From NCBI GenBank assembly GCA_964479455.1, contig CAYZMF010000002.1, forward strand, positions 1 to 47,195: a stretch of DNA of 47,195 bases, written 5' to 3'. The notes under the pieces were generated by a model. That model saw only the letters and a list, made by a program, of their open reading frames with translations, did not search any database and had not been told where the DNA came from. The position numbers were made by a program, and so were the translations under genes. The stretch comes from an uncultured Gammaproteobacteria bacterium. Lineage in GTDB: Bacteria; Patescibacteriota; Patescibacteriia; Patescibacteriales; UBA12465. Shown one piece after another: positions 6,086 to 42,401 of this stretch. The stretch's first letter is position 1. Each line of letters begins with the position of its first letter.

Positions 6086-8017
6086 ATGAAAATAAATAAA
6101 AAGTATAAAAAGTATATCTATTGGGCGGTAGCTATTGTCTTGGTGGTTTTAGCTATCTTTTTTTTGAGGCGAGATAAGGGGGAAGAAGAATATAGCACTG
6201 CCTTTGTTTTGGCCGGACCTTTAAAGCAAACGGTAGCAGAAACTGGCACAGTTAAGGCCTTGAAAGAATTAAATTTAAATTTTTCTCAGACTGGCAAAGT
6301 TTTAGATATCCTGGTTGAAGTTGGCGATGAAGTAGAAAAAGGAGCACTTTTAGCTCAATTGGATAACACCGCTTTGGGAATAAGGAGGTCAGAGGCTTTA
6401 GCCGGCTTGCAAATGGCCCAAGCTAATTTAAGTAAATTATTAGAGGGGGCCAGTTTATCAGCTATTGATATTAGTCAAAGTAATTTAGAACAAACTAAAA
6501 TCGCTCAGGCTTCAGCCGAAAATGAATTAGAAAAGCTTAAAATATCAGTTGAAGAAAGCATTAAGCAGGCTAGAAAAACACTGGCTGATTTAGAATCAAC
6601 TAAAACTATTACGCCTCTCAGGCAGGGAGTCAATAGTGCTCAGATTAATTTGAAAAATATTAGACAAAGTAATTTAAAAAATATCAATCATAGCCGTTCT
6701 TTAGCCTTAAATACTTTCAGTGATAAGATATTAGTGGCTCAGATTGCGGTTGATAATGTCTATTCTCTAATTGAAGATGATACGGCTGAACATGTCTTAA
6801 GTGCCAAGGATTCCTCTTGGCTGATTAAAGTAAAAAATGGTCGTCTAATATCTCTGTCTAAATTAGATGAGGCCCGTCAGGCACTTGATTTAGCTCTAAA
6901 TTCAAATGACAATGAACTAACTAGTCTAGCTGGGGAGGAAGCTCAACAGGCTTTAAGTTTAGTTAGAGAATTATTATCCAACACTTATTTCATGCTGGAG
7001 GCAAGTATTACTAGTAGCAGTTTCCCGCAAACTCGTTTAGATAGCTATAAATCAGCAATAAATAATCAAATTAGCCAGATTGCCGCGGCTATTACGACTA
7101 CTGAAACAGCTTTATTCAATTTTCAAAATACTCTACTCCAATCAGATAATTCATTATCAAATGCCAGTGAGGCTTTAAGGCAGGCAGAGGCTAATTTAAA
7201 TAATGCCATTTTAAACGCTAGCAATAATTTAAATAATCTAATTCTATCAGGCGATCAGCAAATTAGTTTAGCAGAAGCCAAGCTTAGTAGCACTAAGCAA
7301 GCAGTGGTGGTAGCGCAAGCTCAATTAAACAATATTAAGGATTCAGCTAGTCAGGCTGATATTAGTTTAGCCCAAGCTCAAATTAATCAAGCCCAAGCTA
7401 ATCTAAATTCAATTGATGAGCAAATTGAAAACACCAAGTTATATGCCCCTTTTAACGGAGTAATTACTGAATTAAACTACAATATTGGTGAACAATTTAG
7501 CCCTAGTTTAACTAGCTTCATTAAACTTTTAGTTGATGATCTTTTTGAAATTGAGGTAGATATTGCTGAATCAGATATCAATAAGGTTAAGCTTAATGAT
7601 AAAGTACAAATTACTTTAGATGCTTTTGGTAGAAATACGATATTTACTGGCCTCGTTTCTTTTATTGAACCGGCTCAAACCATGATTCAGGGAGTAGTTT
7701 ATTATAAAGTAAAAATCCAATTTACTTCACTAGAGGCCTGGTTGGCCGAAAATATAGAAAAAAAACAAGAAATTAAAACAGGGATGACTGCTAATTTGGA
7801 AATTGAAACAGCCAGTCGTGATAATGTTTTGCAAGTTCCTGGTCGAGCCATTATTAGCGAAGATGAGGCGAGAAATATAGTAAGAGTTTTAAATAATGGT
7901 GAGATAGTTGAAAAAGAAGTCCAAATTGGCTTGCGAGGAGATAGTGGTTTAGTAGAAGTAATTAGTGGATTAAGTGAAGGGGAGGAGGTGATTACCTTTA
8001 TTCGTAATTCAAATTAG
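6086..8017 (+). CDS. HlyD/MacA-family periplasmic adaptor with an unusually long coiled-coil hairpin
   Basis: 643 aa. N-terminal TM (YWAVAIVLVVLAIFF), lipoyl-like GKVLDILVEVGDEVEKGALLAQLD, about 350 aa of A/Q/L/N-rich heptad-like sequence, then beta-barrel/MPD motifs (LYAPFNGVITELN, GMTANLEIE). Confidence 0.85.
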   Translation: MKINKKYKKYIYWAVAIVLVVLAIFFLRRDKGEEEYSTAFVLAGPLKQTVAETGTVKALKELNLNFSQTGKVLDILVEVGDEVEKGALLAQLDNTALGIRRSEALAGLQMAQANLSKLLEGASLSAIDISQSNLEQTKIAQASAENELEKLKISVEESIKQARKTLADLESTKTITPLRQGVNSAQINLKNIRQSNLKNINHSRSLALNTFSDKILVAQIAVDNVYSLIEDDTAEHVLSAKDSSWLIKVKNGRLISLSKLDEARQALDLALNSNDNELTSLAGEEAQQALSLVRELLSNTYFMLEASITSSSFPQTRLDSYKSAINNQISQIAAAITTTETALFNFQNTLLQSDNSLSNASEALRQAEANLNNAILNASNNLNNLILSGDQQISLAEAKLSSTKQAVVVAQAQLNNIKDSASQADISLAQAQINQAQANLNSIDEQIENTKLYAPFNGVITELNYNIGEQFSPSLTSFIKLLVDDLFEIEVDIAESDINKVKLNDKVQITLDAFGRNTIFTGLVSFIEPAQTMIQGVVYYKVKIQFTSLEAWLAENIEKKQEIKTGMTANLEIETASRDNVLQVPGRAIISEDEARNIVRVLNNGEIVEKEVQIGLRGDSGLVEVISGLSEGEEVITFIRNSN

Positions 8018-32585: not shown

Positions 32586-33737
32586 ATGAAAAAAAAAATT
32601 AAAATTGGAATTGATGCTCGTCTTTTTGGACCGGTTGGAAAAGGACTAGGGCGTTATATGGAGGAGTTAATAAAAAAAATGCTATTAATAAGTAAAGAGC
32701 AGCACTTTGTTGTTTTTTTAAATAGTTCAAATTTTAATTTGCTGCCAGAGGCTGATAATTTAGAAAAAGTATTAGTTGATATTAAGTGGTATAGTTTGAA
32801 AGAACAGATTATTTTGCCCCGCTTAATTAGAGAAAAGAAAATAGACTTAATGCATTTTCCTCATTTTAACGCGGCTATATTTTGCCCCTGTCCTTTTGTG
32901 CTTACAATTCATGATTTAATCTTAACTAAGTTTCCCTCAATTAAAGCCTCTAGCTTGTCTTATTTAAGTTATTGGTTTAAATACTTTATGTATCGGCTGG
33001 TTATTAAGATAGCGGTTTTAAGAGCGAGGAAAATTATCACTGTTTCTCTTTTTAGTAAAAATGATATCATTAAGAAATTAAAAGTTAAAAGCCAAAAAAT
33101 TGTGGTCATCTATGAAGGGGTTTCTAAACTGAAAAATTCAAGCCTCAAGGAAGATGATCTAATTAAAAAATATGACTTAAAGGGGCCATATATTCTCTAT
33201 ATTGGCAATGCCTATCCTCACAAAAATTTAGACTTTCTGCTAAAAGCTTTGTTTGAGATAAGAAATAGGGGAGAGAAGACTAGATTGGTTTTAGTCGGTA
33301 AAGAAGATTATTTTTACCAGCAATTAAAGAAAAATGCTGGAAATTTAAAGATATATCAAAAATATGATATAATTAAAAGTCCGGTAGTTTTCACTGGCTA
33401 TGTTAGTGATAATCAGTTAAAAAAATTATATCAGAAAGCTTTTTTTTACGCCTTTCCCTCCTTTTATGAGGGATTTGGCTTACCTCCACTTGAGGCTATG
33501 TCTCAATCCTGTTTAGTCTTATCATCTAATCAGTCTTGCTTACCAGAAATACTATCTCAAGCAGCTATTTATTTCTCTCCTTTTAAGCTAGATGATTTTA
33601 TAGAAAAGTATTTTCAGCTGAAAAATAATCCCAGTATTAAAGATATTTATGTCAAAAGAGGACAGAAGCAAATTTTAAAATACAGCTGGCATAAATGTGC
33701 CCAAGAAACTTTAAAGATTTACCGGGAATCCTTATGA
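32586..33737 (+). CDS. Glycosyltransferase family 4 (GT-B, GT1-type)
   Basis: 383 aa. C-terminal half has the FPSFYEGFGLPPLEAM motif (E-x7-E type). Confidence 0.85.
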   Translation: MKKKIKIGIDARLFGPVGKGLGRYMEELIKKMLLISKEQHFVVFLNSSNFNLLPEADNLEKVLVDIKWYSLKEQIILPRLIREKKIDLMHFPHFNAAIFCPCPFVLTIHDLILTKFPSIKASSLSYLSYWFKYFMYRLVIKIAVLRARKIITVSLFSKNDIIKKLKVKSQKIVVIYEGVSKLKNSSLKEDDLIKKYDLKGPYILYIGNAYPHKNLDFLLKALFEIRNRGEKTRLVLVGKEDYFYQQLKKNAGNLKIYQKYDIIKSPVVFTGYVSDNQLKKLYQKAFFYAFPSFYEGFGLPPLEAMSQSCLVLSSNQSCLPEILSQAAIYFSPFKLDDFIEKYFQLKNNPSIKDIYVKRGQKQILKYSWHKCAQETLKIYRESL

Positions 33738-36064
33738 AGAAAAAAAAATTAAAATTGAATATTATTGAAAATCCGAAATCATTATCGACTTCTTTTGTTA
33801 TTAACCTAAAAGATTTAAGTGTTAATAAAAAAAGAAGAGTTTCTAAGCTACCCTTTTTTCAAAAAAAAAATTTGGAAGTAAATTTTGCTACTAAAATTAA
33901 AAAAAGTTTTAGAAAAATTAATTTTAAAATCAAAAGAAGGCCAAGCACTAAAAGGCTTTGGTCGCAGAGATTGAGGGCCTTTTCTCAAGTTTTAAATAAT
34001 AACAAGGAAGAAAAGCAACTAAAGAAATCTAGATCTAGATCAATTCTGGCCTTTATTCTTATCCTTATTTTTCTAATTATTCCTTTTAAATTTCTCAGTT
34101 ATTTAAAAGTAATTGATATTTCAGGCTTGGAGAACAAGATTTTTAGTCATAGTCAGGCTGCCTTTAATAATTTAGGTCTAGCCAGCAATTCAATAAAAAA
34201 ACTAAATTTAGATGAGGCTAGTTCTAATTTTAATTTAGCGGCTGGCGATTTTAGAGAGGCTAGTTTAGAATTAGAAAAATTTAATATCCTGCTACTTAAA
34301 TTAGCAAAATATTCTAATGATCCAAAATTTAAATTAGCCTCAGCTGCCCCTCATTTTTTAGAGGCTGGTAAAAGAGCAGCTAATTTAGGTCAGTACTTAA
34401 GTTTGGGTTTTGAAGCTTTTTTAAATAATAATAATGATTGGGAAGAAAAGATTAAATCCTTTTTTAATTATAATAATTTAGCCTTGAGTGAAATTTATGA
34501 GCTAAATAAAGCCTTAGACAAGATTGACCCCAAGCTAGTGCCAATTGAGCATCAAGCTTTATATTCATTATATGAAAATACTGCCAAGGAGATAGAAGGT
34601 TCTTTAGCTGCTGTTAAAAACCTAGAAAATACTTTCTATACTATTTTAGGTTTTGACAGGAAGCAGAGATATCTCCTTGTTTTTCAGAATAATTATGAAA
34701 TGAGAGCTAGTGGTGGATTTATGGGCAGCTACGCCTTAGTCGATGTTTTAAATGGAGCAATTGTGAACTTAGAGGTCCCTAGTGGTGGCAGCTATGACAC
34801 AGAAGCGGGCATGACCAGCTTTATTGCCTCACCTGAGCCTTTATGGCTAGTTAGTCCTCGTTGGTATCTTTGGGATGCTAATTGGTGGCCAGATTGGCCA
34901 ACTAGTGCTAAGAATATAATGTATTTATACGAAAAAAGTAGTGGTCCGAGCGTTGATGGAGTAATTGCCTTTAACTTGCCGGTTTTAGAAACTTTACTTA
35001 AATTAACGGGACCAATTGACTTGGGGGACGACTATGGGCTAAGAATTGATGATCAAAACTTTTGGCTTCTTTTGCAAAAGACCACTGAAAAGAAAAATCT
35101 TTTACTTAGTCATTCTCAAGAATTAATGGATATTCCCGATAGTTTAGAAAATGAACCAAAGCAAATAATTGCTGACTTAATGACCTCTGTTTTAGAAATT
35201 TTACCTGAGAAACTTAACTTTGAAAGCTTAGCTTTTTTACTGCAAAGTTTAAACCAGCACCTAAAAGCTAAGGATATATTGTTATACTTTAATGACAGAC
35301 TGCCTCAAGAAAAAATTAATGAACTAGGTTTATCAGCTTCAATTTCTCAAACAGATTATGATTATTTAATGATTATAAATAGCAATATTGCTGGGCAAAA
35401 AACAGATAAAGTGATGGAGGAAAAAGTTTTTCTAGATACTAAAATTTTGAAAGATGGTCGGATCATAAATGAACTAACAATCGCTAAAAAACATACCGGT
35501 CTCAAAAATGAAATATTTACAGGAGTTAGAAATGTAAATTGGTTAAGGGTCTATGTCCCGGAGGGTAGTAAATTGATTTCTGCCAGTGGCTTTAAGACGC
35601 CTGATTTGGAATATTTTAGCTATCCAGAAGATGAGTGGGAAAATATTCCCTTAGTTGAAGAAGGGGAGAAAAGGGCCGAGATTGATCCCCAATCAAAAAC
35701 CTTGGTTTATCAAGAATTAGATAAAACAGTTTTTGCCAATTGGACAATGACAGATCCTCAAAAGCATTCAGTGATTAAATTAAAATATGAATTACCCTTC
35801 AAGTTTAAGCCCTTAGCGCAGGAACAGTCCTGGCTTAAGAGTTTAATCTCGAAAGACGGCAGAGAAAGTTATTTTCATTCCTTGCTCCTTCAAAAGCAAG
35901 CCGGCTTAAAAGACTTTCAATTCTATTCGAGGATGAGAGCCGAAGGGAATTGGCAGCTTAAGTGGTTCTACCCTGAAAATATGTCTAATTCGCAATATAT
36001 TTGGTCAATAGATGAAATAATTAATCAAGATAAAATTTGGGCTTTTAGTGCTCAAGCTTTATAA
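33734..36064 (+). CDS. DUF4012-type single-pass membrane protein
   Basis: Lys-rich N-terminus, TM ILAFILILIFLIIPF, and the motif RYLLVFQNNYEMRASGGFMGSYALV, which I recall as the DUF4012 signature. The ATG at 33734 overlaps the GT4 stop (ATGA). Confidence 0.75.
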   Translation: MKKKKLKLNIIENPKSLSTSFVINLKDLSVNKKRRVSKLPFFQKKNLEVNFATKIKKSFRKINFKIKRRPSTKRLWSQRLRAFSQVLNNNKEEKQLKKSRSRSILAFILILIFLIIPFKFLSYLKVIDISGLENKIFSHSQAAFNNLGLASNSIKKLNLDEASSNFNLAAGDFREASLELEKFNILLLKLAKYSNDPKFKLASAAPHFLEAGKRAANLGQYLSLGFEAFLNNNNDWEEKIKSFFNYNNLALSEIYELNKALDKIDPKLVPIEHQALYSLYENTAKEIEGSLAAVKNLENTFYTILGFDRKQRYLLVFQNNYEMRASGGFMGSYALVDVLNGAIVNLEVPSGGSYDTEAGMTSFIASPEPLWLVSPRWYLWDANWWPDWPTSAKNIMYLYEKSSGPSVDGVIAFNLPVLETLLKLTGPIDLGDDYGLRIDDQNFWLLLQKTTEKKNLLLSHSQELMDIPDSLENEPKQIIADLMTSVLEILPEKLNFESLAFLLQSLNQHLKAKDILLYFNDRLPQEKINELGLSASISQTDYDYLMIINSNIAGQKTDKVMEEKVFLDTKILKDGRIINELTIAKKHTGLKNEIFTGVRNVNWLRVYVPEGSKLISASGFKTPDLEYFSYPEDEWENIPLVEEGEKRAEIDPQSKTLVYQELDKTVFANWTMTDPQKHSVIKLKYELPFKFKPLAQEQSWLKSLISKDGRESYFHSLLLQKQAGLKDFQFYSRMRAEGNWQLKWFYPENMSNSQYIWSIDEIINQDKIWAFSAQAL

Positions 36065-36069
36065 AAAAT

Positions 36070-37953
36070 ATGCAAAATAATAAAAAAGGATCACAATTTA
36101 CGCAGCGTCCCTTGCCTAGTCAAGAAGATGTTTCGCGTTTTGAAAAAAATGTTAATAAAGAAATTAGGGAAGTGGAGATAAGTGACAACTTAGAAGATAT
36201 TTATAAAGATAAAGAGGGGAAATTGATTGATGTCGCTAATGATAAATTTAGGAAGAAGCGGTCTTGGTTATTGATAATTTTTAAAAACCTCTTTATTATC
36301 GGTATAATTTTAAGTGCCCTTTATTTAGCCTATAGCTATCTTAGTAATTATTATTATGCCAGCACCGGTAGTCCTAATTTAGAAATAATAGTACCCGAGA
36401 AGGTTGTTTTAGGGGAAGAAGTGTCATATATAATTAAATATCATAACCCCTCAATGATTAGTCTCAATGACTTAAATTTAGATTTAACTTTGCCAAAAAG
36501 CTTTGTAATAAATGATTTTTCCTTAGAGCCAAGTTCACTTCATAGTTGGAGTTTAGGAGAACTTGGCCCAAAAACAGGTGGGGAAATTATTATAAAGGGC
36601 TACTTTGTAAATTTACAAGATTTTCCCAATACTGCTAGTGCTTCTTTATCATATGTACCCGCTAATTTTTCTAGTCAGTTTAGCAAACAAGTCAGTGCCA
36701 ATACCCTTGTTTCAGATTTAGGCTTTAATCTCAGTTTAGATTATCAAAGTACTAATATGCTTGGTCAAGAAAATGAGGTTAAATTAAAATTTAACAATAT
36801 TGATGATTTTCAGCTTGAAAATATTATTTTAGAAATAGAAAAACCTGATAATTTTATTTGGCAAGAGCAGAAAAATGACAATCTTGAGACATTAGGCGAT
36901 AATCGGTTTAAAATAAAGAATTTTGAAGAAGAAATTATTTTTAAATACCTTATTACTGAAAAAAAAGCTGATCACCAAGGACTAAGCTTTTCTTTATATA
37001 GCGATGACCTTTTGTTTTGGGAGCAGAGCTACCTAGTTGAAATTTTAAAAAGTGATTTAGAACTGGCTTTAAGCGTTAATGATAGTCGTCAACAATTAGC
37101 GGCTGGCTTTGGCGAGACTTTAAATTATAAGCTAGAATTCTCTAATCATGGCGAGGCAGATATTGTTGATTTAGTTTTAATGGTGGTTTTAGAAGGTGAG
37201 ATTCTTGATTTAAATAGTCTTGAGTCAAATTTAAATTACCAAATAATGGACAATGTTATCATTTTCACTAAAAAAGAAATTGAAAAACTAGCAAATTTTA
37301 AGGCCGGAGAGAATTCTGAGCTAAGCTTTTCAGTTAAAACAAAAAGTTTTAACTCTCAGTACATAGCTCAGGAGTTGAAGCTAGTTAATTTTGCTCAGTA
37401 TAGTTTAGCTGGTAGCAGTAGTCAATTAGAGGACAATAAGAGCAATGAAGTAGAGATAGTGATTAATTCAGATTTAAGCCTTAGTGAAGAATTAAGGTAT
37501 TTCGATGAAAATAATTTCACAGTCGGTTCTGGTCCTTTACCACCAAAGGTGGGTGAAGAAACTAGCTTACGCTTCTATTGGACTCTAAAAAATAATGTCC
37601 ATGACTTAGATGATGTTTCTGTCCTCCTAGACTTACCAGACTTTGTTCAATTTGGTGATTTTTCTCAAGCAACGGTTGGTGCTATCAATTATAATCCTGA
37701 CTTGCATCAAGTTGCCTGGATAATTGAAGAAATGCCAATTTCAATTTTTAGAGCCGACGCCTACTTCAATATTAAATTGATCCCGACAAGCGGGGATCTT
37801 AATAAAATTTTAGTTCTGTCGCCCGGCACTCAAGTTTCCGCTTATGATAAGGTGACAGCTGGTCAAATTAGTATTAAAAAAAATACTAAGACAACTGCTT
37901 TAGAGGATGATGAGATTGCCCTTCTCAATAATCATGGTCGGGTAATTGAATAA
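36070..37953 (+). CDS. Single-pass membrane protein with repeated Ig-like (CARDB/DUF11-like) modules
   Basis: 627 aa. TM WLLIIFKNLFIIGIILSALYLAY. Repeated modules, e.g. VVLGEEVSYIIKYHN..., AAGFGETLNYKLEFSNHGEADI..., PPKVGEETSLRFYWTLKNNVHDL... Confidence 0.7.
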   Translation: MQNNKKGSQFTQRPLPSQEDVSRFEKNVNKEIREVEISDNLEDIYKDKEGKLIDVANDKFRKKRSWLLIIFKNLFIIGIILSALYLAYSYLSNYYYASTGSPNLEIIVPEKVVLGEEVSYIIKYHNPSMISLNDLNLDLTLPKSFVINDFSLEPSSLHSWSLGELGPKTGGEIIIKGYFVNLQDFPNTASASLSYVPANFSSQFSKQVSANTLVSDLGFNLSLDYQSTNMLGQENEVKLKFNNIDDFQLENIILEIEKPDNFIWQEQKNDNLETLGDNRFKIKNFEEEIIFKYLITEKKADHQGLSFSLYSDDLLFWEQSYLVEILKSDLELALSVNDSRQQLAAGFGETLNYKLEFSNHGEADIVDLVLMVVLEGEILDLNSLESNLNYQIMDNVIIFTKKEIEKLANFKAGENSELSFSVKTKSFNSQYIAQELKLVNFAQYSLAGSSSQLEDNKSNEVEIVINSDLSLSEELRYFDENNFTVGSGPLPPKVGEETSLRFYWTLKNNVHDLDDVSVLLDLPDFVQFGDFSQATVGAINYNPDLHQVAWIIEEMPISIFRADAYFNIKLIPTSGDLNKILVLSPGTQVSAYDKVTAGQISIKKNTKTTALEDDEIALLNNHGRVIE

Positions 37954-39076
37954 TAATATTGTGTATAAATTAAAAACTAAAACAAAGTATCGCCAAGGAA
38001 AACTTCAAACTAAAAGCGGTAGTTTAAACACACCCATCTTTTTACCTGACGCCACTCGAGGTTTTTTAAAGTTAAGCGATAAGCAGACTTTAAGTAAATT
38101 AAAATATGATGCTTTAGTAATTAACACTTTTCATCTATATCTTCAACCAGGGCGGGATTTAATAAAAAAATTTAAAGGCATCCATTCTTTTATGTCCTGG
38201 CCAAAGATATTGCTATCTGATAGTGGTGGTTTTCAGGTTTTTTCACTTATTTACAAAAACAAGAAGATGGGGGAAATTAGTGATTGGGCGGTTAAATTTA
38301 AGTCACCTCTTAATGGTTCGTGGCATAGCTTTAGCCCCGAGAAATCGCTTGCTATCCAATTTGATTTAAATACTGACATTATGGTTTGCTTAGATGATTG
38401 CCCGCCCAATGATAGCGAATTTTTAGTTATGGAAAAATCAGTGGCACGGACAATTGCCTGGGCAAAAAGATCAAAGCAAGAATTTGAAAAACAAATTAAA
38501 AAACGGAAAATTAAGGAAGAAAAGCGCCCTCTTCTTTTAGCCGTTATTCAGGGGGGTTTAGACCTGGGTTTAAGGAAATTCTGCGCCGAGGAATTGATTA
38601 AAATAGGCTTTGATGCTTATGGCTTTGGAGCTAGGCCAGTTGACAAGGAGGGGAATTTTTTAGAGGAAGTCTTGAGGGAAACAGCTAAGCTTATCCCCCC
38701 CGACAAGCTCCGTTTTGCCTTAGGAGTAGGTCTGCCTGAAGATATTTATCGTGCCTACCAATTGGGTTGGGATGCCTTTGATTGCGTTATTCCTAGCCGT
38801 GAAGGAAGGCATGGGCGCCTTTTTTATTTCAATAAAAATTTTAAGGGCTTGGACAAAAGACTAGACTTTTACTACACTATAAACATCAAGAATGCAAAGT
38901 TTAAAAATGATAAAAGTTTAATCAATGAAAATAGTCAATTTAAAAGCTTAGCTGATCATAACTTAGCCTATTTACACCATCTTTTTAAAGCCAATGAACC
39001 ACTCGGTCAGTATCTAGCCAGTTTAAATAATTTAGAATTCTATCAAAATTTAATTAAATATCTTAAAAAATTATGA
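37946..39076 (+). CDS. tgt: tRNA-guanine transglycosylase family protein, divergent (Zn-site ligands absent)
   Basis: LSDSGGFQVFSL, LDDC, AVIQGG, GVGLPEDI, DAFDCVIPSREGRHG. The ORF-track start is a TTG at 37946. A GTG at 37961 (VYKLKTKTKYRQGKL) aligns better with the E. coli Tgt N-terminus. Confidence 0.8.
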   Translation: MNNNIVYKLKTKTKYRQGKLQTKSGSLNTPIFLPDATRGFLKLSDKQTLSKLKYDALVINTFHLYLQPGRDLIKKFKGIHSFMSWPKILLSDSGGFQVFSLIYKNKKMGEISDWAVKFKSPLNGSWHSFSPEKSLAIQFDLNTDIMVCLDDCPPNDSEFLVMEKSVARTIAWAKRSKQEFEKQIKKRKIKEEKRPLLLAVIQGGLDLGLRKFCAEELIKIGFDAYGFGARPVDKEGNFLEEVLRETAKLIPPDKLRFALGVGLPEDIYRAYQLGWDAFDCVIPSREGRHGRLFYFNKNFKGLDKRLDFYYTINIKNAKFKNDKSLINENSQFKSLADHNLAYLHHLFKANEPLGQYLASLNNLEFYQNLIKYLKKL

Positions 39077-40101
39077 ACACTAAAATAATTGCAACAATTG
39101 GCCCCAAGACTGAATCTAAAAGTCAAATTAAAGAATTAATTAAAGCTGGCGTTAGTTTTTTTAGACTTAATTTTTCTCATACCTCATATACTCAATATCG
39201 GAAAGTAAAGAAATATATAGATGAGTTAAATAAAGAGCTCAAAACAGAGGTTAAAATAATTCAAGACCTGCAAGGACCCCGAATTAGGGTTGGTAATTTA
39301 TTAAAAGATTCTTATCTAATTAAAAAAGATGATCAGCTTAAGTTTAAATATTTTAGAAATAATACGGAGAAAGAGAGTATTTTACCACTGGATAGTCCAT
39401 CTTTGTATCAATTTTTAAAGCCCAAAGATTTAATCTATTTAGCCAATGGAGAAATGGAGCTAGAGGTATTGAAAATAGAAAAAAAAATTATTTCCACCAA
39501 AGTATTAAAAGGAGGTCTTCTCACTTCTCAGAGAGGCCTTAATCTACCAAAGACTGACTTTAAACAATCTGGTTTAACGGCTAAAGATATTAAGGATGTA
39601 AGGTTTGCCCTAAAAATTGGAGTCGATTATATTGCCCTTTCTTTTGTCCAGAGAGCCAGCGATATTTTACGATTAAAAAAATTGATTGATAATAAAAAAG
39701 TAGCTATCATCGCTAAAATTGAAAGAGCGATTGCCCTAGATAATATTGACAGCATCATTAAGGTTTCTGACGCAATTATGGTGGCACGAGGAGATCTTGG
39801 CATTGAAGTGCCAATGGAAGAACTGCCAATTATTCAAAAGCATTTAGTCCGACATGCTCATTGGCATGATAAGCCAGCCATTATTGCTACTCAGGTGATG
39901 ACTTCGATGATAAATAATGCTCGTCCAACCCGAGCGGAAATAAGTGATATTGCCAATGCGGTTTTAGATGGGGCTGATATGATTATGTTATCTGATGAAA
40001 CAGCGATTGGTAATCATAGTGTTTTGGCTATTAATTATTTAAAAAAAACAATTATAAGAACCAAACAATATCTCTATAAAGATAATGTTATTAAACATTA
40101 A
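39073..40101 (+). CDS. pyk: Pyruvate kinase, A+B domains only (no C-terminal regulatory domain)
   Basis: 342 aa. KIIATIGP, FRLNFSH, LQGPRIRVG, AKIE, MVARGDLGIEVP, ATQVMTSM, MLSDETA. ATGA overlap with tgt. Confidence 0.88.
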   Translation: MNTKIIATIGPKTESKSQIKELIKAGVSFFRLNFSHTSYTQYRKVKKYIDELNKELKTEVKIIQDLQGPRIRVGNLLKDSYLIKKDDQLKFKYFRNNTEKESILPLDSPSLYQFLKPKDLIYLANGEMELEVLKIEKKIISTKVLKGGLLTSQRGLNLPKTDFKQSGLTAKDIKDVRFALKIGVDYIALSFVQRASDILRLKKLIDNKKVAIIAKIERAIALDNIDSIIKVSDAIMVARGDLGIEVPMEELPIIQKHLVRHAHWHDKPAIIATQVMTSMINNARPTRAEISDIANAVLDGADMIMLSDETAIGNHSVLAINYLKKTIIRTKQYLYKDNVIKH

Positions 40102-41411: not shown

Positions 41412-42401
41412 ATGAAGCTAAATGATGTTTTAAAAAGTCAGCCTAAGTTTAGATATCAGCAAGTAAATAAAGGCTTGTATCAGGAGTATATTAGTAATTG
41501 GAATGATTTAAGTGTTTTGCCCCTTCAGTTAAGAGAGGAGTTAAATCAAAGCTTTCCCTTAGAATTAAAGCATCAATTACTTAAAGAAGAAAAAAGCTTA
41601 AAAGCCTTAATATACTTAGCCGATGGTCAGGCAATTGAAACTGTTTTAATTAGAAATAATCATTTAAACACAGTTTGTCTCTCATCGCAGATTGCTTGTC
41701 CTTTAAAATGTCGCTTTTGTGCCAGCGGTCAAGCTCCTTTTGTTAGAAATCTACAAGCTGATGAGATGATTAATCAATTTTTATTTTGGGCTCGATATTT
41801 AAAAGCAGAGCAAGAAAAAATAGATAGAGTGGTCTTTATGGGCATGGGCGAACCTTTTTTAAACTACAATGAATTTAAAAAAACTCTAGACATTTTAAAT
41901 AATCCCGAAAAAATTAATTTAGGAGCGAGAAAAATTTCCGTCTCTACGGCTGGCATCTTAAGTGGTATTAAAAAGTTATCGACAGAAAAGGCTCAGATTA
42001 ATTTAGCCATATCACTGCACGCTAGTAATGATATTTTAAGAAAACAATTAATGCCCCTAGCTAGTGCTCAGGCCAATCTCTATCAACTATTTAAGGCGAG
42101 TGATGATTATATCAAAAAAACTAATCGCCAAGTAATGCTGGAGTATTTAATGATTAGAAATATTAATGATAGTCCAGAGGATGCTTATCAGTTGAGTAGA
42201 TTGATTAAAAACAAAAAATTGTATATGATAAATTTAATTCCCCTTAATAAAGTAAAAAATTATAAATGCTCTCAGCCAAGAGTCATTGATGAGTTTAGGG
42301 ACATTCTTGAAGAAGAGGGCTTAAAAGTTAGTGTCAGGGAAAGTTTAGGCCAAGACCTGCAGGCTGCCTGCGGGCAATTAAGATTAAATAATAATAACTA
42401 A
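41412..42401 (+). CDS. rlmN: 23S rRNA/tRNA (adenine-C2)-methyltransferase, radical SAM
   Basis: CPLKCRFCASG radical-SAM cluster, MGMGEPFLN, ISVSTAG, LAISLHA, a C-terminal conserved Cys in AACGQL. I prefer the ATG at 41412. Confidence 0.88.
   Translation: MKLNDVLKSQPKFRYQQVNKGLYQEYISNWNDLSVLPLQLREELNQSFPLELKHQLLKEEKSLKALIYLADGQAIETVLIRNNHLNTVCLSSQIACPLKCRFCASGQAPFVRNLQADEMINQFLFWARYLKAEQEKIDRVVFMGMGEPFLNYNEFKKTLDILNNPEKINLGARKISVSTAGILSGIKKLSTEKAQINLAISLHASNDILRKQLMPLASAQANLYQLFKASDDYIKKTNRQVMLEYLMIRNINDSPEDAYQLSRLIKNKKLYMINLIPLNKVKNYKCSQPRVIDEFRDILEEEGLKVSVRESLGQDLQAACGQLRLNNNN

Follow-up and report, generated by a model that had tools for sequence, protein, structure and literature searches.

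A tRNA-guanine transglycosylase lacking the four zinc ligands and the canonical substrate loop in a Falkowbacteria-type order of the Patescibacteria

Can a tRNA-guanine transglycosylase (TGT; Tgt for the bacterial enzyme) that has none of the four zinc ligands of its family, and whose substrate loop has been rewritten, still be the ordinary Tgt of its lineage? The question is raised by a gene at 37946–39076 (+) of a stretch of 47,195 nucleotides, hereafter the window, which is contig CAYZMF010000002.1 of GenBank assembly GCA_964479455.1; its record is titled "uncultured Gammaproteobacteria bacterium" and its GTDB lineage is Patescibacteriota, UBA12465. According to the literature, TGTs have two hallmarks, the barrel and the zinc domain (PMC6165067), and the zinc subdomain is said to contribute to tRNA binding and to the dimer interface (PMC6165067, PMC5699537). 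The analysis presented here indicates that the window protein is probably a working tRNA-guanine(34) transglycosylase, inserting 7-aminomethyl-7-deazaguanine (preQ1), and the ordinary Tgt of its lineage; the zinc-free Tgt is an apparently undescribed, widespread and repeatedly evolved variant, found here with a switch-less proline loop.

The gene, its former zinc site and its substrate loop

Regarding its family, the product of this single open frame (376 residues counted from a TTG start; stop TGA at 39074–39076) matches the Pfam family PF01702 over residues 15–374, with an E value of 3.4e-92 and 309.7 bits against a cut-off of 26.3, and it scores 314 bits with TIGR00430, the NCBIfam equivalog profile of bacterial Tgt, whose cut-off is 306.75; its database twin, P0001, starts instead from the GTG at 37961 and has 371 residues. 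The best matches among solved structures (HMMER) are bacterial TGTs, Zymomonas mobilis 1ozm_A (E 2.1e-64) and 10fb_A (E 4.8e-64), followed by QTRT1 (6e-47), QTRT2 (1.4e-10) and the archaeal enzyme ArcTGT 1iq8 (3.5e-7, residues 15–100 only); the archaeal profile TIGR00432 gives 76.6 bits, far below its cut-off of 350. The alignment with the Z. mobilis/Escherichia coli type of Tgt (1ozm, 10fb, TIGR00430) is end to end (E ~1e-64), and fold family and length are the same; three short insertions distinguish the window protein. A family search of the whole window genome (725 kb, 65 contigs, 96% complete) returned this gene as the only TGT-family member, so that the second tgt for which the initial annotation had proposed to look was not found. 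Finally, contigs X5 and X4, from independent public sequencing runs, match the window at 38179–39081 and 38216–39051, respectively, with no differing letter, and the residue pattern described below is therefore not a sequencing error.

As for the zinc site, the residue equivalences were counted by hand along the HMMER alignment to Z. mobilis 1ozm_A and 10fb_A, and the codons were then verified. The ligands C318, C320, C323 and H349 correspond to S330 (38933–38935), F332 (38939–38941), L335 (38948–38950) and N361 (39026–39028), all on the plus strand; the former zinc stretch as a whole, 38933–39028 (+), was delimited by alignment, conservation and codons, and it is identical in the independent contigs. 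Ligands at shifted positions, an outcome for which the initial annotation had allowed, are excluded by the alignment, because the 96 residues that follow residue 280 contain no cysteine. A pool of 229 clade sequences (duplicates between sources retained) has Ser at position 330 in 217 cases, Leu at 335 in 208, one of Ile, Leu and Phe at 332 in 210, and at 361 Asn in 194 and His in 31; 200 sequences have no Cys after position 300. The residues that replace the ligands are thus conserved, and therefore they are themselves under selection.

Two ideas about the loss were considered and discarded. One was an insertion that would compensate for it, ahead of the former zinc stretch, but the GRHG–NAKF segment has 12–67 residues in the zinc-free members and is no shorter in the zinc-containing sequences labelled Moranbacteria; the length of this variable insertion does not follow zinc status. 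The other candidate was a genome-wide sparing of zinc, but the Zn-ribbon ribosomal proteins L36, S14, L31 and L33 of the window genome all keep their cysteines, and general zinc thrift is not behind the loss in Tgt.

Regarding catalysis, the residues of Z. mobilis D102, D156, C158, Q203, G229, V233 and D280 are all kept and correspond to D92, D150, C152, Q202, G228, V232 and D279. The codons of the general acid/base D92 (38219–38221, +) and of the covalent nucleophile D279 (38780–38782, +) were verified, and neither residue varies in any of the 229 clade sequences, nor do D150, Q202, G228, F257 and L259; D150-D151-C152 (38393–38401, +), the counterpart of the base-recognition residues D156-E157-C158, has Cys in 218. 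The two aspartates distinguish the window protein from QTRT2-type partners, in which the catalytic Asp is replaced and which accompany a catalytic paralog. Mean column identity across the order is 65% (alignment A1).

The substrate region is altered at six positions, with A229 for G230, R230 for L231, P231 for A232, D233 for G234, K234 for E235 and L259 for M260, so that the loop G229-G230-L231-A232-V233-G234-E235 becomes G228-A229-R230-P231-V232-D233-K234 (38627–38647, +; alignment and conservation). In TGTs, the Leu231/Ala232 peptide switch and Glu235 are part of substrate accommodation, and the contact of G230 with the base runs through the backbone; the loop GARPVDK of the window protein has neither the switch nor the glutamate. 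Within the pool, 218 sequences have Ala at the position of G230; at position 231, 210 have Pro and 19 have His; V232 is Val or Ile in 227, D233 is Asp in 228, and the position of Glu235 is variable. The initial annotation had described a TGT homologue with its catalytic aspartates in place, all four zinc ligands lost to S, F, L and N, and the GGLAVGE loop replaced, and on these three points it was accurate: the window frame is confirmed as a Tgt in which the loss of the ligands and the replacement of the loop are real.

Distribution in the order and the queuosine pathway

The set of relatives comprised 41 genomes, namely the window's own, two of the same genus, 22 of the same family and 16 of the same order. 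A Tgt match occurs in 39 of them, mostly in the zinc-less form, and most of the matches have 54–64% identity and are single in their genome; in G225, G229, G233 and G240 the match is weak by comparison, divergent or fragmentary. CxCxxC is missing from every one of the 120 best database relatives (58–100% identical; labelled, among others, Falkowbacteria, Parcubacteria and Patescibacteria group), and the loop G[FL]G[AG][RM]P[VI]D is common to all of them. A scan of species-representative genomes returned at least 586 stretches encoding relatives, of which 80 were kept; these are 51–64% identical and titled Falkowbacteria, Moranbacteria or Patescibacteria group. The window gene is thus the single, vertically inherited, ordinary tgt of a Falkowbacteria-type order. 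It should be noted that contigs with a Tgt 52–62% identical to the Falkowbacteria type also bear the titles "uncultured Gammaproteobacteria bacterium", Omnitrophota or Bacillota (L120, L122, L124, L125, about 30 further loci, and also L153 and L155), which look like default or wrong labels.

Two enzymes that act after Tgt accompany it in the order: QueA is present in 35 of the 41 genomes, both same-genus genomes included, and QueH likewise in 35. Both are absent from five genomes; the window genome lacks QueA only, and one other (G236) lacks QueH only. Since QueA needs preQ1-tRNA and no other TGT is present, this Tgt must supply it. In the window genome, QueH was identified with an E value of 1.3e-49, and the 32 assembled tRNAs include the GUN-anticodon substrates tRNA-Asp (GUC) and tRNA-Tyr (GUA), but not tRNA-His or tRNA-Asn.

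As for QueA, a profile search of the window genome did not find it. In both same-genus genomes, QueA stands three genes after a gene of 972–992 residues, within a conserved block, and the window-genome ortholog of this long gene runs past the end of contig C53 (3966 bp); QueA and its three immediate neighbours gave zero tblastn hits in the window genome. The best explanation is that the assembly breaks at the QueA block. The assembly stops right after the gene that precedes this block, and its 96% completeness hides missing housekeeping genes.

Regarding the origin of preQ1, no gene for its synthesis was found in the window genome; family searches there returned no QueF, QueG or YhhQ/Vut_1, and the lone weak QueC match lies within a frame of 345 residues that was judged MnmA-like from its sequence and was rejected. 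In five good relatives, two of them single-contig, QueF, Vut_1/YhhQ and QueT were not found, and the QueC matches, equally weak, cover only the first 36–120 profile positions. The lack of QueC, QueF, QueG and YhhQ in the window genome fits the salvage of a precursor. Missing precursor transporters are a common situation (PMC11130926), and the trio of Tgt, QueA and QueH is also known from DPANN archaea (PMC8204110). The combination of Tgt, QueA and QueH, with neither synthesis nor a known importer, is the profile of a preQ1 salvager. None of the matches from the que-family searches of the genome fell on the window contig (C2), in agreement with the initial annotation, which had seen no queuosine or preQ0 genes in the window; as a picture of the genome that view does not hold, because QueH is present and QueA falls at a contig break.

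The QueH of the window genome is the C-terminal domain (residues 343–514; match at 7210–7728 of contig C5) of a frame of 515 residues (L003:1498–3045, −), whose N-terminal part is a membrane domain of the WecA/MraY-type glycosyltransferase family 4 (PF00953, E 3.8e-28). The QueH match lies in frames of 516–542 residues in most genomes of the same family and in frames of 181–322 residues in the other families of the order; the longer frame suggests that a membrane enzyme and an Fe-S enzyme of tRNA modification are joined in a conserved fusion.

The tgt gene itself stands in a conserved housekeeping block composed of a GT1 glycosyltransferase, a DUF4012 protein, a surface-type protein of 627 residues, tgt, pyk, eno, RlmN, superoxide dismutase and a His-phosphatase; its immediate upstream neighbour is common to 72 of 81 loci, and pyk and eno follow downstream. 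The three upstream genes (32586–37953, +) encode the GT1 glycosyltransferase, the DUF4012 protein (789 residues) and the 627-residue protein, which is membrane-anchored and has a weak DUF7619 match; they travel with tgt across the clade and probably concern the cell envelope. A radical SAM gene at 41412–42398 was considered as a queuosine-related neighbour and set aside, as it is RlmN (TIGR00048, 304.8 bits, cut-off 290). No queuosine-related gene was found among the neighbours of tgt, and no DNA-modification genes were found near it.

Zinc status of Tgt across the phylum

The phylum was sampled evenly through 201 Patescibacteria genomes; a TGT match occurs in 178 of them and QueA in 89. Excluding the window genome and G150, the other 176 Tgt were aligned to count the ligands: 142 have all four, 31 have at most two, one has three (with CxxxCC spacing), and two are cut by a contig end. 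The 31 zinc-less proteins span 13 family codes, and in 11 of their genomes QueA co-occurs with the sole TGT match; several of these 11 Tgt (families f7 and f4) keep the canonical GGL[AS]VGE loop.

A FastTree phylogeny of 204 sequences, computed with the zinc stretch left out, requires 13 changes of the zinc label, of which at least 11 are forced by branches with support of 95 or more; a smaller IQ-TREE phylogeny has six changes, at least three of them forced. The window protein nests inside the bacterial-type Tgt of the Patescibacteria, in a clade of 30 rows with support of 99–100, whose sister is a zinc-keeping clade with a GGW-Pro or GGF loop. In addition, the pool of 229 contains 11 proteins labelled Moranbacteria that combine a GFGARH[IV]D loop with an intact CxCxxC...H. 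Since both the sister clade and these proteins join a changed loop to a zinc site, the loop changed first and the zinc was lost later.

The Moranbacteria-labelled proteins (L170, L171, L177, L179, L183, L184, L186, L188, L193, L194 and L197) provide the window protein with a natural counterpart that contains zinc, with 53–57% identity overall and ~61% in the barrel. They share with it the GAR-type loop, L259 and D233; the differences are the retained zinc ligands, a His at position 231, and, where Z. mobilis has Cys158, either a Pro or a Val, the latter being the residue of the queuine-using QTRT1.

A second zinc-free clade (family code f12; L219–L221, L257, L268, L270, L274, L278 and L069) has the loop GGVANGGEPE and, at the four ligand positions, Ser, Phe/Ile/Leu, Leu and Asn/His/Gln, as in the window clade. 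Over a C-terminal part of only ~57 columns, the window clade is 48.6% identical to the f12-type clade and 45.1% identical to the Moranbacteria-labelled zinc forms; the values for the barrel are 37% and 61%, respectively. Either convergence or an exchange of modules could explain the likeness of the zinc-free C-terminal parts.

Two other groups of the phylum are worth recording. The GGW-Pro sister clade (L034–L049, L072 and others), which keeps its zinc site, lacks QueA in 14 of 19 genomes, and a related Tgt with the GGF loop, of family code f22, directly adjoins QueA. The proteins of L212–L215 and L217 (f27 and f53) share ~25% identity with the window protein and have Pfam E values of ~1e-68 to 1e-74; they have all four ligands by alignment, and each is the sole TGT match in a genome of 0.6–0.8 Mb.

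Probable function, alternatives and meaning

Where genomes of the order have QueA and QueH, an ortholog of the window protein is their only Tgt, and ordinary preQ1 insertion at G34 is for this reason the preferred function; the initial annotation had instead proposed a different base or nucleic-acid specificity, which the same evidence speaks against. Most likely, preQ1 taken up from outside would be exchanged for G34 in tRNAs with a GUN anticodon (Asp, Tyr, Asn and His) by the usual TGT chemistry, with D279 as the covalent nucleophile and D92 as the acid/base; the base would be held by D150, Q202 and the backbone of G228/A229, and sandwiched between F96 and L259, and QueA and then QueH would finish queuosine on the tRNA. 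We infer from the replacements that the zinc knot, rebuilt with Ser, an aliphatic residue or Phe, Leu, and Asn or His, would form a small packed, hydrogen-bonded and metal-free core. In the loop, Arg-Pro and Asp would take the place of the Leu231/Ala232 switch and of Glu235, and the proline may keep the carbonyl of residue 230 facing the pocket, which is how it binds the preQ1 aminomethyl group. Judged from the sequences, these would be two structural solutions unlike those of every characterised TGT.

Several observations weigh against this assignment. Five related genomes with this Tgt type or a divergent one have neither QueA nor QueH, so that their final base is not queuosine; QueA was not found in the window genome, and the case for an assembly gap there, although strong, is indirect; searches of the window genome and of five relatives did not detect any known precursor transporter, which leaves the reconstructed salvage route incomplete. 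Furthermore, the score of the window protein exceeds the TIGR00430 cut-off by 7 bits only, and its loop has neither Glu235 nor the amide of residue 232, on which substrate accommodation in TGTs partly depends.

Among the alternatives, a doubtful but not negligible one is that these proteins form a distinct TGT subclass of the Patescibacteria, in which the metal-free core and the proline-fixed Arg-Pro-Val-Asp loop alter the discrimination between guanine and 7-deazaguanines, for instance in a one-way preQ1 inserter or in an enzyme for other salvaged bases; the zinc-free module may in that case have spread by domain exchange. It is unlikely that the changed pocket (A229, R230, P231, D233 and L259) accepts a base other than preQ1, be it queuine, preQ0 or another salvaged 7-deazaguanine, within a non-canonical pathway. 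Such a base would agree with the rewriting of the loop that reads the 7-substituent, which is itself highly conserved, with the lack of preQ1 synthesis genes and of a known transporter, with four relatives that have the same Tgt type and neither QueA nor QueH, and with the scarcity of QueA in the sister GGW-Pro clade; but in 35 of 41 relatives this Tgt, the only one, is accompanied by QueA, which needs preQ1-tRNA, and a preQ0-tRNA would have no known follow-up enzyme, given that QueF is absent. As for queuine, Val233 is reported to block it (PMC6165067, PMC11570991); the TGTs that salvage it carry GG[LS][AS]G (PMC11570991), and QTRT1, a queuine user, has Val at the Cys158 position (PMC6165067). 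The window protein has neither feature, and the retention of Val232 and Cys152 argues against this base. The Chlamydia-type TGTs and QTRT1 resemble the window lineage in that their hosts cannot make the precursor and salvage a base, but their pocket is opened by GG[LS][AS]G, with Val158 in QTRT1 (PMC11570991, PMC6165067), and their systems are without QueA and QueG/H, whereas the relatives of the window genome keep QueA and QueH; QTRT1 also retains its zinc site.

That the subdomain binds a metal through other ligands (His338, His344 and His345, or Asp/Asn) is improbable: the histidines of YLHHLF are close to the former site and the fourth ligand position is still His in 31 of 229 sequences, but the HH pair, which zinc-containing TGTs have as well, does not make a new site, H338 lacks conservation, 216 sequences carry an aliphatic residue or Phe at two of the four positions, and 200 have no Cys beyond position 300. 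Less probable still is a non-catalytic or decaying TGT, either a QTRT2-like partner, as the initial annotation had also suggested, or a pseudo-enzyme. The lost hallmark site, the divergent loop and a Pfam score of 310 bits, compared with 400–540 for canonical Patescibacteria Tgt, could be read in this sense; on the other hand, both catalytic aspartates and all base-binding side chains are invariant, the genome has no second TGT gene to act as the partner, the match to QTRT2 (E 1.4e-10) is far weaker than that to bacterial TGT (2e-64), the protein is strongly conserved across the order, and QueA and QueH are retained alongside it. Least credible of all is a DpdA-like or archaeosine-type enzyme acting on DNA or on another tRNA position. 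The DpdA of E. coli phage 9g, a member of the TGT superfamily that lost two of the four zinc ligands (PMC5699537), offers a precedent on that branch; it differs in its DNA substrate, its ArcTGT-like pocket and the loss of only two ligands, and is not a tRNA G34 enzyme. Against this alternative, the window protein has the low TIGR00432 score and the short ArcTGT match given above, its 376 residues leave no additional C-terminal domains, it is surrounded by genes for the envelope and for glycolysis and by none for DNA metabolism, and its position in the trees is inside the bacterial-type Tgt of the Patescibacteria.

The preferred reading, a probable preQ1-inserting Tgt, keeps the residues and the pathway partners, QueA and QueH, of the Z. 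mobilis/E. coli enzyme; it departs from it in the missing Cys3-His set, the Arg-Pro and Asp-Lys in place of the switch and Glu235, Leu for M260, and a window genome without de novo preQ1 genes. A relaxed or abolished need for zinc has been described for DksA2, QueD2 and FolE1B/FolE2, two of which act in the queuosine pathway (PMC11672702). These are paralogs induced under zinc limitation, whereas the zinc-free Tgt is the only copy, in a genome with zinc-type L36, S14, L31 and L33. Tgt does not occur in the available part of that account of zinc-independent QueD2, FolE1B and DksA2 (PMC11672702), and no literature was found on Tgt or queuosine in the Patescibacteria or other bacteria of the candidate phyla radiation. 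No zinc-free bacterial Tgt was found in the literature covered, outside which lie the supplementary pocket tables by taxon of PMC11570991 and PMC11130926 that may bear on the point. The view that a zinc-less TGT is unusual therefore agrees with the literature, for which the zinc domain is a hallmark (PMC6165067). The converse possibility, that this form is the already described, ordinary tgt of its lineage with demonstrated queuine insertion, is correct in that the gene is the ordinary tgt, and not in the rest, as the literature covered yielded no description of it.

In conclusion, an order whose only Tgt is zinc-less and is yet partnered with QueA and QueH suggests that the metal is dispensable for function, and at least 11 independent changes of zinc status in one phylum suggest that the site is easily replaced. 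Should the change be no more than cosmetic in an ordinary Tgt, the finding would be of value only for annotation and protein engineering. Automatic checks based on CxCxxC would misjudge these tgt genes. The zinc-free Falkowbacteria-type and the zinc-containing Moranbacteria-labelled proteins, 53–57% identical, provide natural matched pairs, and a TGT without the Leu231/Ala232/Glu235 switch can probe current ideas on substrate discrimination. This Tgt may be a fourth zinc-independent enzyme of the queuosine pathway, beside FolE1B and QueD2.

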